Shown here: one piece after another, positions 32,987-35,562 of the stretch | Layout: each line of letters begins with the position of its first letter | Numbering within the stretch: position 1 is the first letter of the stretch | Sequence record: MK295204 | DNA: 64,000 nucleotides | Strand: one strand, 5' to 3' | Source of the DNA: Shigella phage vB_SdyM_006 | Position numbers and translations under genes: made by a program | Notes under the pieces: generated by a model | Databases searched by the model: none | Told to the model about the DNA's origin: nothing | The model's input: only the letters and a program-made list of their open reading frames with translations

Positions 32987-33127
32987 AATTTTTTCCTTGT
33001 TTGTTTAAAGTAGAAACACTATATCATAGATTATATAAAAGCTAAATTTCTTTTATTTTAAAAACAAAAAAGGTCCAACATTTCTGTGGACCTTAAAAGC
33101 AACTTCTTTTATTATTTATTTTAAATT

Positions 33128-33204
33128 TGGTACACCTACGGGAATTCGAATCCCGGTTACACGCTCGAAAGGCGTGGGTCCTAGACCACTAGACGATAGG
33201 TGCA
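33128..33204 (-). tRNA. tRNA-Glu (anticodon UUC)
   Basis: Manual fold: acceptor GCACCUA/UAGGUGU, anticodon stem CACGC with loop CUUUCGA, T-loop UUCGAAU, encoded CCA. Confidence 0.7.
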
Positions 33205-33210
33205 TTAAAA

Positions 33211-33302
33211 TGGAGGAGAGTATGGGATTCGAACCCATGGAACAGCGTAACTGTCCAACGGTTTTCAAGACCGTCTCAATAATCCATCTCTGACAACTCT
33301 CC
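33211..33302 (-). tRNA. tRNA-Ser (anticodon UGA), class II
   Basis: Perfect acceptor GGAGAGU/ACUCUCC, anticodon loop CUUGAAA, long variable arm, T-loop UUCGAAU, CCA. Confidence 0.8.
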
Positions 33303-33309
33303 AATATAA

Positions 33310-33627
33310 TTAAAACAGTAGACTATAAACAGTACCTTTACAATCTATAGGTTGTGTTTTTGAATATTCTTTAAATAGATTTAAATAACCAATTTCTTCA
33401 GGTTCCCATTGTCCTTCTAAACCATAACATGAACAATGTGAGCCGTTAACTTCCCAAAATATATCATTACTATCTTTGAAGATTACAGTAGCATACCCAG
33501 AATAATCTTCATAATCGTAATATGCTAAAATGATTTCTTTGTCATTAAGTGAATCCATAGGGATTTGGAATTCATGACAGATGTCTTCTTTTGAAGTAAA
33601 CAGTTCCATAAACACATTAGTTTTCAT
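33310..33627 (-). CDS. Hypothetical protein between tRNA genes
   Basis: ORF track gives 33310-33720, but the N-terminal part overlaps tRNA-Asp; trimmed to internal Met (about 105 aa). Confidence 0.4.
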   Translation of the reverse strand: MKTNVFMELFTSKEDICHEFQIPMDSLNDKEIILAYYDYEDYSGYATVIFKDSNDIFWEVNGSHCSCYGLEGQWEPEEIGYLNLFKEYSKTQPIDCKGTVYSLLF

Positions 33628-33650
33628 ATCAATATCCTCAAAATTAATTT

Positions 33651-33726
33651 TGGCGGTCTTACCGAGAATCGAACTCGGTGCTGTTCCGTGACAGGGAACT
33701 ATGTTAACCAGGTACACCATAAGACC
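33651..33726 (-). tRNA. tRNA-Asp (anticodon GUC)
   Basis: Acceptor GGUCUUA/UAAGACC, anticodon stem GUUCC with loop CUGUCAC, T-loop UUCGAUU, CCA. Confidence 0.8.
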
Positions 33727-33756
33727 TTAAAAATGTACCCATCCGGCTTTCCAGTC

Positions 33757-33857
33757 TGGTGAAGGGTTGTCACCTCTAGTTTAAACCTGCTAGTCAAGTA
33801 ATAATTGCATATCGTCCAATTATCAAAACCGTCTAGGTTATATTACACCACTTCCTA
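33757..33857 (-). ncRNA. Possible small stable RNA in the tRNA cluster (not foldable as a canonical tRNA)
   Basis: About 100 nt between tRNA-Asp and tRNA-Gly, begins with tgg (CCA-like 3' end on minus) and contains local hairpins; T4 carries small stable RNAs in the equivalent position. Confidence 0.2.
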
Positions 33858-33919
33858 GAATACCGTCTAAGCGGACTTGATCGACGTAGATTACACCATA
33901 TACGTCTGATTGTGGAATT

Positions 33920-33993
33920 TGGAGCGATCTACGGGTATCGAACCCGTATCTTCTGGGTGGAAACCAGAAATAATAGCCATTATACTAAGATCG
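33920..33993 (-). tRNA. tRNA-Gly (anticodon UCC)
   Basis: Perfect acceptor GCGAUCU/AGAUCGC, anticodon stem UCUGG with loop UUUCCAC, T-loop UUCGAUA, CCA. Confidence 0.8.
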
Positions 33994-34615
33994 CATATTT
34001 ATTAATAAATCTTCTTGCTTGGGTATGACTTAATCCTATATGTTTAGCAAATTTATTTAAGTTACCTCTTATTGAAATATCAAATGATTTTAATATTTCT
34101 AATCTATAATTAATTTCGTCTTTTGACAATGTAGAGGCATTATTAATAGAAATTTTGTTTTTAGATATATCCGAATGTCTCTTATTTTTAAAACCAAACG
34201 AATTTTTCTTTTTGCTAAAATCATATAATCCGAGTCTAAGTCTTTTCTTAAATGTATTAACTTGTTTACTTATAGTTAATTTAGATTTTGGCAATGAATT
34301 TATATAATCCCAACCACCTTCACCACCAACTTTTAAATTATATGTATTTTTGCTTTTAACAAATTTTTCTGTAACTATTTTGGCTTCATGTATAAACATG
34401 TCATACTTATTTTTATGAAATTTTAAAATAGTTTTTTCAAAATTTTCTTTGCCATATTTTTCTATGGCTTTTTTCAAAATCTTACCTGAACCAAAATATC
34501 CATCTTCTAAATCTTTGGTTTTATGAACACCTATATAAATTTTATTATTTATTTTATTTTTAATTTTGTATGTATAATAAAACATTATAGCCTTATTTAT
34601 CTTTTGGTACTCCAT
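33980..34615 (-). CDS. GIY-YIG homing endonuclease (seg-like) inside the tRNA cluster
   Basis: 211 aa; N-terminal YTYKIKNKINNKIYIGVHKT ... GYFGSG is a GIY-YIG motif; lysine-rich C-terminal DNA-binding region. Confidence 0.75.
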   Translation of the reverse strand: MEYQKINKAIMFYYTYKIKNKINNKIYIGVHKTKDLEDGYFGSGKILKKAIEKYGKENFEKTILKFHKNKYDMFIHEAKIVTEKFVKSKNTYNLKVGGEGGWDYINSLPKSKLTISKQVNTFKKRLRLGLYDFSKKKNSFGFKNKRHSDISKNKISINNASTLSKDEINYRLEILKSFDISIRGNLNKFAKHIGLSHTQARRFINKYAILV

Positions 34616-34779
34616 TCTTTATTAGTTGCTTTATTAACAGCAGTAGAATAAGAATTTTTAATATCTTCTGTAACAGAATAGCCAGTTAACATAGTAGAAA
34701 TTAAAATAACATATCCAAGCATTAATAAAATACAAGATAAAAATCCTGCAATAATAAGAATTGTACCTAAAGTAGTCAT
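34597..34779 (-). CDS. Small membrane protein (trimmed from the 34597-34890 ORF, which overlaps a tRNA)
   Basis: Internal Met yields about 60 aa with one long hydrophobic helix. Confidence 0.35.
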   Translation of the reverse strand: MTTLGTILIIAGFLSCILLMLGYVILISTMLTGYSVTEDIKNSYSTAVNKATNKEWSTKR

Positions 34780-34798
34780 ATTGTTCTCACAAATTATT

Positions 34799-34875
34799 TG
34801 GTGACCCACCATGGAATCGAACCATGCTCCAACGCTTATGAGGCGTTCGCTTTCAACCAGTAAGCTAGAGGGCCT
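34799..34875 (-). tRNA. tRNA with anticodon CAU (Met or Ile2-type)
   Basis: Anticodon stem AACGC/GCGUU with loop CUCAUAA, T-arm CAUGG-UUCGAUU-CCAUG, CCA; acceptor has one mismatch. Confidence 0.65.
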
Positions 34876-34882
34876 TGCAATT

Positions 34883-34966
34883 GGTGGCACCGGGTAGACT
34901 CGAACTACCGAAGGCCGAAGCCTGGAGATTTACAGTCTCCTGTCATTGCCGCTAGACTACGATGCC
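34883..34966 (-). tRNA. tRNA-Tyr (anticodon GUA), class II
   Basis: Anticodon stem GGAGA/UCUCC with loop CUGUAAA, long variable arm, acceptor GGCAUCG/CGGUGCC, CCA. Confidence 0.7.
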
Positions 34967-35011
34967 TTTTCTTATCAATAACGACTAAAAATAATCGTTA
35001 TTAATCAGAAT

Positions 35012-35088
35012 TGGTACACACTACTGGATTCGAACCAGTGACCTACGGTTTAGAAGACCGTTGCTCTATCCATCTGAGCTAAGCATGC
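35012..35088 (-). tRNA. tRNA-Arg (anticodon UCU)
   Basis: Anticodon stem ACGGU/ACCGU with loop CUUCUAA, T-loop UUCGAAU, CCA; acceptor stem has three G-U pairs. Confidence 0.6.
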
Positions 35089-35089
35089 A

Positions 35090-35380
35090 TTATAAGTACT
35101 GTTTAATCAGTTCTTCGTTATTTTTAAAAAGAATAAAAATATTATCACGAACTTCAGTATCTGAGATATGCCATTTCATAGCATCAATTAAAATGTCTTT
35201 TGGGATCATATTATATAAATTATTTAGTAAAGCAATATTATTTATATCAATATCAACTTCAAATAATTCAAAAATACAACACGAAATAGAATCATAAAAA
35301 TCTTTAATGTCTATTTCATACTTAGACAAATTATTTATAAATTCTGTTTTAGCTTGTTCTGGATTATGTGCTTTAAACAT
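35090..35380 (-). CDS. Hypothetical protein
   Basis: 96-aa ORF between tRNA-Arg and tRNA-Trp. Confidence 0.45.
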   Translation of the reverse strand: MFKAHNPEQAKTEFINNLSKYEIDIKDFYDSISCCIFELFEVDIDINNIALLNNLYNMIPKDILIDAMKWHISDTEVRDNIFILFKNNEELIKQYL

Positions 35381-35402
35381 TTTTATTCCTATTATTCTAA
35401 AA

Positions 35403-35477
35403 TGGCAGGCTCTGTAGGAATCGAACCCACGTCTTCGGATTTGGAATCCGGTATTCTACCGACTGAACTAAGAACCT
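35403..35477 (-). tRNA. tRNA-Trp (anticodon CCA)
   Basis: Anticodon loop UUCCAAA, D-arm UAGUUCAGUCGGUAGAAU, T-loop UUCGAUU, CCA. Confidence 0.7.
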
Positions 35478-35478
35478 T

Positions 35479-35562
35479 TGGCGGGCAGTGTAGGATTCGA
35501 ACCTACGTCGTCAAATGACACGGATTAACAGTCCGCTGCTTAATCCACTCAGCCAACTACCC
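35479..35562 (-). tRNA. tRNA-Asn-like (anticodon GUU) with an unusually long variable arm
   Basis: Anticodon arm CGGACUGUUAAUCCG is nearly identical to E. coli tRNA-Asn, but the variable region is about 13 nt (GUCAUUUGACGAC), giving 84 nt. Confidence 0.55.

Follow-up and report, generated by a model that had tools for sequence, protein, structure and literature searches.

Clusters of tRNA genes in phage genomes have usually been regarded as helpers of codon usage and, lately, as counters to defense systems that cleave tRNAs. In phage T4, the cluster also contains rnaC and rnaD (species 1 and species 2 RNA), which are non-tRNA RNA genes of 119–139 nt that lie on the tRNA strand and abut tRNA genes. 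These small stable RNAs are presumed to be released by the tRNA-processing enzymes, and fifty years of study have left them without a known function. Escherichia coli provides further examples in the 3'ETS-leuZ and metZ–metW spacer 'sponge' RNAs, which are by-products of tRNA-operon processing that act in trans. Another type is represented by GOLLD and ROOL, large structured RNAs that are associated with phages and prophages, often lie beside tRNA genes and occur mainly in Firmicutes and environmental phages. Cryo-electron microscopy work on GOLLD and ROOL is available (10.1101/2024.12.08.627333). In this study, the tRNA cluster in a stretch of 64,000 nucleotides from Shigella phage vB_SdyM_006 (sequence record MK295204; the whole stretch is referred to as the window) was analyzed together with a 181-nt element located between its tRNA-Gly and tRNA-Asp genes. 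Like the T4 genes, the element lies on the tRNA strand and abuts tRNA genes. On the evidence of sequence comparisons and Rfam scans, it is an RNA of a family new to Rfam and the sole non-routine item in the region; the tRNA cluster, its endonuclease and the peculiarities of its tRNAs are genuine and of a kind usual in T4-like phages.

The element starts 2–3 nt past the CCA of tRNA-Gly and ends 10 nt ahead of tRNA-Asp (Table 1). When the whole region was used as a query, the 193 nt between tRNA-Gly and tRNA-Asp were the only part that matched dozens of jumbo phages, such as 121Q, PBECO4, RaK2 and K64-1, at ∼85–88% identity; the neighboring tRNAs and the flanks gave no match in these genomes. 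A dedicated search returned 49 phage records that carry the element at 82–90% identity, in 44 of which it is nearly full length. Four unrelated groups account for the carriers: Bragavirus, with Pm5461 and PM2, together with Morganella phage Mm5 in the Straboviridae, Novosibvirus of the Demerecviridae (genomes of ∼102 kb), Asteriusvirus (∼350 kb) and Alcyoneusvirus (∼350 kb). The edges of the conserved block are sharp, running from AUUCCAC to GGAUGGRY, and the flanks are unrelated. In the carriers the matching stretch is either unannotated or placed under a short 'hypothetical protein'. Such coding sequences cover part of the RNA gene in 121Q (positions 1498–1581 of locus L005) and in several Asteriusvirus and Salmonella jumbo-phage records; their frames are not conserved and they are probably spurious.

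More distant copies were also located. A weak BLAST match [expectation value (E) of 0.05] led to a diverged copy in Aeromonas phage 65, which as a query matched 20 Aeromonas phage records (Emmerichvirinae) and led back to Pm5461 with an E of 7e-7. A third clade is represented by a 120-kb contig from IMG/VR (L049), which was found using a degenerate pattern; a search with this copy gave matches solely in the enteric and Aeromonas clades, the lowest E being 9e-12. A 17-mer pattern scan gave 27 matches, most of which arose by chance; among the pattern-scan matches, L048 and L054 were chance occurrences in coding DNA. IMG/VR and a metagenome collection yielded a handful of further copies. No copy was present in 5,426 complete E. 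coli genomes, in the plasmids of PLSDB or in one genome per GTDB species, and a host origin of the element was ruled out on the basis of these searches. No description of the element was found in the literature searched, the coverage of which excluded most subscription-journal papers.

At each of its loci, the element is situated within or next to a tRNA cluster, always on the tRNA strand. This includes Mm5 (PP397179, L007), for which the tRNA strand given in GenBank is wrong according to ARAGORN; the tRNAs are co-directional with the coding sequences and the element. In four contexts the element starts 1–4 nt past a tRNA CCA, namely that of tRNA-Gly in the window, tRNA-Leu in Proteus phage 1 and tRNA-Pro in AP1, ZPAH1, AS-yj and CC2. 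A conserved neighboring protein gene was sought beside the element and none was found. Within Asteriusvirus, gp130 lies downstream of the element in 121Q and its homolog gp379 (60% identity) upstream of it in EJP2, and therefore the RNA gene has moved within this genus. The comparisons show, at the sequence level, that the element behaves as an independent module, with near-identical copies at differing places of the cluster in unrelated phage families.

The element has also been lost. The closest relative of the window, phiP4-3, lacks it, and the tRNA-Gly and tRNA-Asp genes of this phage are a few bases apart. G17-type Asteriusviruses retain the first 36 nt, that is, the 5' tail and most of hairpin P1, and by sequence these copies are natural deletion remnants. 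In G17 the remnant (L011:1503–1536) comes right after a strong promoter-like site, as it does in phAPEC6, Sharanji and others. As it has been lost naturally from phiP4-3 and G17, the RNA is not essential.

Two further observations were made at these loci. In 121Q, a near-consensus (11/12) sigma-70 promoter-like site, TTGACT-17-TATAAT with a TG extension (L005:1471–1499), ends 3 nt before the element, and this site is conserved in EJP2, PBECO4 and G17. In Aeromonas phage 65 (NC_015251, about 113465–113554; L043:144–233), an unannotated segment between tRNA-Asn and tRNA-Lys matched the Rfam tRNA-Sec model with 47.7 bits against a cut-off of 47, and a weaker match of 26.2 bits was obtained in AP1 over an annotated 93-nt 'tRNA-Tyr'. 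The segment in Aeromonas phage 65 could be an unusual tRNA with a long arm.

The fold was analyzed using a covariance model, R1, which was built from eleven enteric copies only with a hand-drawn structure. R1 recovered the Aeromonas and L049 copies end to end with 72–79 bits (E of about 1e-22 to 1e-24), found a single copy in the window, that of Table 1, and gave no match at E ≤ 1 when run on the tRNA locus of T4 (L042). In the resulting alignment, 97.2% of the cells in 41 pairs are canonical, compared with 82.7% after shuffling, and none of 500 shuffles reached 97.2%; both sides change in 25 of the 41 pairs. In slid controls, in which the 3' partners were shifted by 1–3 columns, the fraction was 24–41%. 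Inclusion of the pseudoknots gave 50 pairs with 97.5% of cells paired (84.0% in the shuffles, with 0 of 500 reaching the observed value; 23–38% in slid controls) and changes on both sides in 29 of them. For a second count, 18 distinct copies were segmented by hand and the segments were verified against the sequences; essentially every helix cell was canonical. Taken together, the comparative data show a covariation-supported structured RNA with six hairpins (P1–P6) and three pseudoknots (PK1–PK3).

The pseudoknots involve both ends of the RNA. PK1 ties the 5' end to the loop of P3 and is formed by CCAC/GUGG, GCAC/GUGC and CUAC/GUAG in the three clades. PK3 pairs the loop of P6 with the 3' end and occurs as ACCC/GGGU, GCCC/GGGC, AUCC/GGAU, GUCC/GGAC and GUCC/GGAU, several of these changes being within the enteric clade. 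PK1 and PK3, both of which lie outside the fitted structure of R1, are paired in 97.2% and 100% of cells, respectively. PK2 has a classical H-type geometry with an A-rich 5-nt connector, in which the CUAG loop of P5a can pair with a CUAG five bases downstream (33776–33779); in the AP1 group the pair is CAAG/CUUG. Among the hairpins, P1 occurs as GACGUA/UACGUC, GGGAUA/UAUCCC and AUGCAU/AUGCAU, and P2 carries a UUCG-capped extension in the L049 copy.

Two of the segments have a second partner. The 3' strand of P2 (CUGG, CGG or UUGG) can alternatively pair with the 3' linker (CCGG, CAG or CCGA; the linker of the window is CCGG at 33743–33746), and the downstream CUAG can form either PK2 or a helix with CUG, CUA, CAA or UUA past P6 (CUG at 33752–33754 in the window). 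Each of the two mutually exclusive helix pairs (P2 versus P2-3':linker, and PK2 versus s2:s3) fits all 18 distinct copies. For each of them, three sites have changed jointly within one lineage; the exclusive helices may represent a conformational switch, for which the evidence consists of single evolutionary events. Other pairings were considered and rejected. RNAalifold on ten enteric copies proposed a closing helix, UCCA..UGGA plus CUGG..CCGG, of which UCCA:UGGA was dropped because 6 of its 72 cells are non-canonical and because its 3' bases show perfect covariation with the P6 loop instead. P7, a local hairpin with the sequence CUGG-AAAA-CCGG, was dropped as it does not occur in the Aeromonas and L049 copies. 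Kissing between the P4 and P6 loops and partners of the P1 loop were sought by eye, and none holds across the clades.

In the sequence-only reading of this region, the segment 33757–33857 was described as ending in a CCA-like sequence and as not folding into a tRNA. The latter part stands: scans did not identify it as a standard tRNA, and neither ARAGORN nor the Rfam tRNA model, at E ≤ 10, found a tRNA within the element of the window (33737–33917) or within any of four further copies. Its boundaries were wrong, as the segment is only the middle of the RNA, and the CCA-like end, ..UUCACCAG, belongs to the internal hairpin P6, of which it forms the 3' strand, and is not an RNA end. Furthermore, nothing in Rfam 15, including the families of riboswitches, ribozymes, group I introns, RNase P, 6S RNA, Y RNA, tmRNA and GOLLD/ROOL as well as others, overlapped any of five divergent copies of the element, that of the window being one of them, at E ≤ 10.

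We lean, with modest confidence, towards the explanation that the element is a separate RNA gene of the tRNA operon, the product of which is freed by tRNA processing and acts in trans. The RNA would be transcribed together with the tRNAs and then set free by the nucleases that process them. For the 5' end, cleavage of the RNase E type within the A/U-rich stretch past the upstream CCA is proposed, and for the 3' end, RNase P cleavage at the downstream tRNA followed by trimming back to PK3. The product would survive because both of its ends are buried in pseudoknots, and would accumulate as a compact, exonuclease-protected species acting in trans. This biogenesis and the trans-acting role are inferred from the arrangement of the genes and the fold. 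Our guess is that the RNA serves as a dispensable accessory factor by binding a protein, from the host or the phage, that is linked to tRNA/translation or to host defense, which would suit a tRNA region that is already a hotspot of accessory and anti-defense genes; in a T5-family preprint, the anti-retron protein Rad and a rescuing tRNA-Tyr lie in a tRNA-rich region that is treated as an anti-defense island (10.1101/2023.03.15.532788). A more far-reaching proposal is that the RNA founds a class of horizontally mobile phage RNA 'genes', in which a self-contained, multi-pseudoknot fold with a strand-exchange switch, exchanged by unrelated virulent phages via their tRNA clusters, would have ribozyme activity or would act on a protein of host defense or tRNA metabolism, as its decoy or inhibitor; this is put forward tentatively and we consider it doubtful.

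Several points weigh against this explanation. In 121Q, transcription starting at the usual distance from the promoter-like site would clip part of PK1, and hence either this promoter does not make the RNA or the 5' end differs there. The counts for the nested helices were taken from an alignment that had been fitted to R1. Folding of the single sequence gave a z-score of −1.69 for the sense strand and −0.75 for the antisense strand, which is uninformative, and the minimum-free-energy structures differ from the comparative structure. With three clades and a few sub-variants, the independent compensatory events are modest in number. As for function, an anti-defense or decoy role is a guess, and the natural losses described above show the RNA to be non-essential.

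These points have to be set beside other ways of accounting for the conservation. The existence of two exclusive pairing sets would suit a cis-acting riboswitch-like or processing-control element, in which the two folds steer downstream read-through or maturation; a U-rich run follows many of the enteric copies, and in Asteriusvirus the element lies just past the strong promoter-like site, which is the position of a 5' leader. However, the downstream sequence differs in each lineage, being tRNA-Asp, tRNA-Ser, tRNA-Glu or tRNA-Thr or unrelated open reading frames (ORFs) 90–200 nt away, and no terminator is conserved, the Mm5 and Aeromonas copies lacking the U-run; the hallmarks of an intrinsic-terminator riboswitch, namely a conserved terminator or anti-terminator and a consistent gene downstream, are thus absent. 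In addition, no riboswitch in Rfam matched, and pseudoknots at both ends fit a free-standing RNA better than a leader. We regard control in cis as unlikely. A ribozyme, for example one that excises itself from the polycistronic tRNA transcript or processes another RNA, would be compatible with the compact multi-pseudoknot fold, with the invariant unpaired segments GACGAUA, ACUAG, CAG, GAGGU and A-N-G-R-Y-G-Y-A, and with the sharp boundaries of conservation, where the ends are held beside conserved loops. The Rfam scans nevertheless gave no self-cleaving ribozyme, group I intron or RNase P, a length of 181 nt far exceeds the small self-cleaving classes, and processing sites are already supplied by the flanking tRNAs. 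We regard catalysis as very unlikely.

Selection at the RNA level also bears on the possibility that the element is selfish or neutral mobile DNA, which would spread between co-infecting phages with no function as an RNA; examples would be a hotspot of recombination, the target of an endonuclease or a miniature inverted-repeat transposable element-like insertion. The presence of the element varies among close relatives and its insertion contexts differ, identity of 82–90% is maintained across unrelated families in which the adjacent tRNAs and flanks are unmatched, and homing endonucleases occur in the same clusters. Nevertheless, compensatory changes preserve at least nine helices, which points to selection on RNA pairing from one strand; comparison of filled and empty sites shows neither terminal inverted repeats nor target-site duplication, and the constant orientation relative to the tRNAs is a further argument against mobile DNA of this kind, which we consider highly improbable. 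Finally, a decayed tRNA gene (or two such genes) or a short protein-coding gene is effectively refuted. The annotation of 'hypothetical proteins' in 121Q and several other records and the occurrence of UAUGGUGUA both in the P1 loop and in the 5' part of the neighboring tRNA-Asp would be in its favor. However, the tRNA searches were negative at E ≤ 10, nearly all copies have stop codons in each of the six frames and no frame is conserved, which marks the element as non-coding, and the substitutions are compensatory rather than three-periodic.

Table 1. Features of the tRNA cluster and of the 181-nt RNA (coordinates of the window)
Feature	Coordinates	Strand	Evidence or remarks
Terminator-like hairpin, AAGGUCCA-(9 nt)-UGGACCUU then UUUUGUUUUU	33060..33094	minus	Read from the sequence
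tRNA-Glu (UUC)	33128..33203	minus	ARAGORN; Rfam tRNA 56.6 bits
tRNA-Ser (UGA), long variable arm	33211..33302	minus	ARAGORN; 50.1 bits
Small ORF, 103 aa	33310..33621	minus	Conserved in Bragavirus relatives as hypothetical protein
tRNA-Asp (GUC)	33651..33726	minus	ARAGORN; 54.5 bits
Structured non-coding RNA gene, 181 nt	33737..33917	minus	Covariance model R1, 206 bits
PK3, P6 loop ACCC with RNA 3' end GGGU	33764..33767 with 33737..33740	minus	72/72 cells canonical
P6 hairpin (GGUGA/UCACC)	33758..33774	minus	Compensatory 2/5 pairs; four pair types at one position
P5a hairpin (ACUUG/CAGGU), loop CUAG	33776..33799	minus	Compensatory 2/5 pairs
P4 hairpin, invariant loop motif GACGAUA	33800..33824	minus	Compensatory 5/6 pairs
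P3 hairpin (UCUAGG/CCUAGA), loop carries PK1 3' strand	33832..33859	minus	Compensatory 4/6 pairs; 100% of cells paired
P2 hairpin (CCG/CGG in the window), hypervariable loop	33863..33874	minus	Compensatory 2/5 pairs
P1 hairpin core (ACGUA/UACGU), conserved loop motif A-N-G-R-Y-G-Y-A	33884..33905	minus	Compensatory 5/5 pairs
PK1 5' strand CCAC	33912..33915	minus	Partner P3 loop GUGG, 33848..33851
tRNA-Gly (UCC)	33920..33994	minus	ARAGORN; 60.6 bits
SegB-like GIY-YIG homing endonuclease ORF, 211 aa	33980..34615	minus	Pfam and T4 SegB homology
Small hydrophobic ORF, 60 aa	34597..34779	minus	Counterpart annotated as membrane protein in relatives
tRNA (CAU)	34799..34874	minus	ARAGORN; 54 bits
tRNA-Tyr (GUA), long variable arm	34882..34966	minus	ARAGORN; 55.1 bits
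tRNA-Arg (UCU)	35012..35088	minus	ARAGORN; 66.7 bits, highest of the nine
Small ORF, 96 aa	35090..35380	minus	No Pfam family; weakly similar DNA at the same place in Bragavirus relatives
tRNA-Trp (CCA)	35403..35477	minus	ARAGORN; 64.3 bits
tRNA-Asn (GUU)	35479..35562	minus	ARAGORN; 59.2 bits

The cluster that surrounds the RNA gene agrees with what had been read from the letters of the sequence. ARAGORN, run on the whole window, gave exactly the nine tRNAs of the sequence-only reading with the same coordinates, each of them on the minus strand. In the Rfam scan, all nine passed the tRNA model (50.1–66.7 bits; gathering score, 29), and no other sequence of the window attained the gathering score of any Rfam family. 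A 3' CCA is encoded by all nine. The set is larger than and different from that of T4, as had been stated, since the T4 annotation lists eight tRNAs (Arg, Ile, Thr, Ser, Pro, Gly, Leu and Gln). The small ORFs and the GIY-YIG homing endonuclease reported between the tRNAs are likewise present, the latter with homology to T4 SegB. The region matches best to Bragavirus, a T4-like genus of the Straboviridae with Proteus phages, among which phiP4-3 is nearest with 97.8% identity over the shared parts. The order in these relatives is Arg-Tyr-Met(CAU)-[61-aa membrane ORF]-Pro-[86-aa ORF]-Gly-(spacer)-Asp-[ORF]-Ser-Glu, and the comparison identifies the region, judged by its sequence, as a tRNA operon from a Bragavirus-like Proteus phage of the T4 type. 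Directly past tRNA-Glu, the terminator-like hairpin has an 8-bp stem and a 9-nt loop followed by a U-run; it is absent from the list produced by the terminator scan, which was limited to loops of ≤8 nt. The hairpin probably marks the end of the operon.

The tRNA-Asn gene had been singled out as atypical, with a canonical anticodon arm and a 13-nt variable arm. Both features were found: the anticodon stem-loop is E. coli-like (GCGGA-CUGUUAA-UCCGU), the discriminator is G73, and the 13-nt variable region, GUCAUUUGACGAC, folds as a GUC-AUUU-GAC mini-hairpin with a 3-bp stem, appearing as a 10-nt insertion in the alignment to the Rfam tRNA model. The form is nevertheless not unusual, as it occurs in hundreds of T5-like and T4-like genomes. 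The long form matched 649 phage records, 623 of them with coverage of at least 80%, and those listed are mostly annotated as tRNA-Asn and belong to T5-like Demerecviridae and to T4-like phages of Serratia and Erwinia. In other phages the arm is GUC-GAAA-GAC, or GUUC-GAAA-GGAC with 4 bp in PR1; the GNRA-capped (GAAA) mini-hairpin is widespread in T5-like phages, and the loop is AUUU in the window. In an alignment of long forms (CHI14, Stitch and PR1) with short forms (PM2 and 121Q), the tRNA-Asn of Proteus phage PM2 has the same body without the hairpin and differs mainly by the insertion of ∼10 nt.

A stem-loop in the variable region is also a feature of class II tRNAs (Leu, Ser and Tyr). In comparison with these, the arm of the tRNA-Asn in the window has a stem of only 3–4 bp and a 4-nt loop, and the tRNA has the anticodon GUU and G73; its variable arm is long and stemmed, whereas neither the anticodon nor the body is that of a Leu, Ser or Tyr tRNA. 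In its body, G73 and anticodon loop it agrees with ordinary phage and E. coli tRNA-Asn. The possibility that it is a Ser, Leu or Tyr tRNA recoded by mutation of the anticodon to GUU, which would lead to mistranslation, was ruled out because the short tRNA-Asn of PM2 has the same body. By sequence, the tRNA is a class I tRNA of a normal phage lineage with an inserted mini-hairpin, which is common and not specific to the window. Within the coverage of the literature search described above, from which most subscription-journal papers were absent, no discussion of this extra arm was found.

Three G-U pairs had been noted in the acceptor stem of tRNA-Arg, and they are indeed present (G1.U72, U4.G69 and G5.U68), in what is still the best-scoring tRNA of the cluster. 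Neither tRNA-Asn nor tRNA-Arg was rejected by the covariance-model scan (59.2 and 66.7 bits). The tRNA-Arg of the relatives has the same 3' strand and G1.U72 with C4-G69 and A5-U68; G1.U72 is common to these relatives, T4 and RaK2, and the other two G.U pairs are specific to the window. As judged from this alignment, two transitions have converted Watson–Crick pairs into wobbles and the stem is unbroken. The acceptor stem of the CAU tRNA (GGCCCU, with C4-G69 and C5-G68) is like that of T4 tRNA-Ile(CAU) and presumably also like that of E. coli ileX. Because of this resemblance, the tRNA is probably an AUA-reading Ile2 tRNA that carries lysidine.

The GIY-YIG ORF matched Pfam PF19835 (SegE_GIY-YIG) with 26.5 bits, marginally above the cut-off of 25. 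With T4 SegB it shares 56% identity across the N-terminal 119 aa (E of 2e-42), and its motif YYTY..KIYIG is aligned with that of SegB; matches in tblastn searches are annotated homing endonucleases. On this homology the ORF encodes a homing endonuclease of the SegB type, at a location typical of such enzymes. The true start is probably the second ATG, at 34585, because the alignment with T4 SegB begins at the shared motif MFYYTYKI. The last five codons and the stop of the ORF overlap the first 15 nt of tRNA-Gly (33980–33994). The ORF sits where the relatives phiP4-3, Pm5461 and PM2 carry tRNA-Pro and the 86-aa ORF, and the replacement of these genes is consistent with an outcome of homing. T4 SegB has the same MFYYTYKI start and likewise lies inside a tRNA cluster beside tRNA genes, but the C-terminal, DNA-binding half of the protein in the window does not align with it, and for this reason the target site probably differs from that of T4 SegB.

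The distribution shows that the RNA gene passes as a module from one tRNA cluster to another among virulent phages of Enterobacterales and Aeromonas, and such a module can cross phage families more readily than the tRNAs that surround it. The natural knock-outs (phiP4-3 and the G17 type), together with tractable hosts of the carriers, namely E. coli (121Q and PBECO4), Klebsiella (RaK2), Proteus and Aeromonas, make the role of non-tRNA RNAs in tRNA clusters directly testable. A consequence for annotation is that spurious 'hypothetical proteins' have been placed over a conserved RNA gene. Beside the small stable RNAs of the T4 cluster, the element represents a second, unrelated family, the fold of which is much more elaborate.

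Comparison with the known RNAs places the element as follows. GOLLD and ROOL are three to four times larger than the element, and these Rfam families did not match it at E ≤ 10. RNAs of the 3'ETS-leuZ type obtain their 5' end from the cut that matures the 3' end of the upstream tRNA, as is proposed for the element; they are short, weakly structured and Hfq-dependent sponges of small RNAs, whereas the element is long and structured with buried ends. T4 rnaC and rnaD are the closest in arrangement. BLAST gave no match of the element in T4, R1 was negative there and the sequences are dissimilar by eye, by which homology was ruled out. A tRNA-like T-arm and acceptor form the end of T4 rnaC, whereas the 181-nt RNA has no tRNA-like part and folds with multiple pseudoknots. 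Our best guess from this comparison is that the element is analogous, and not homologous, to rnaC and rnaD: it is a non-tRNA RNA of a phage tRNA operon, of the same kind as the T4 RNAs but with a new fold.

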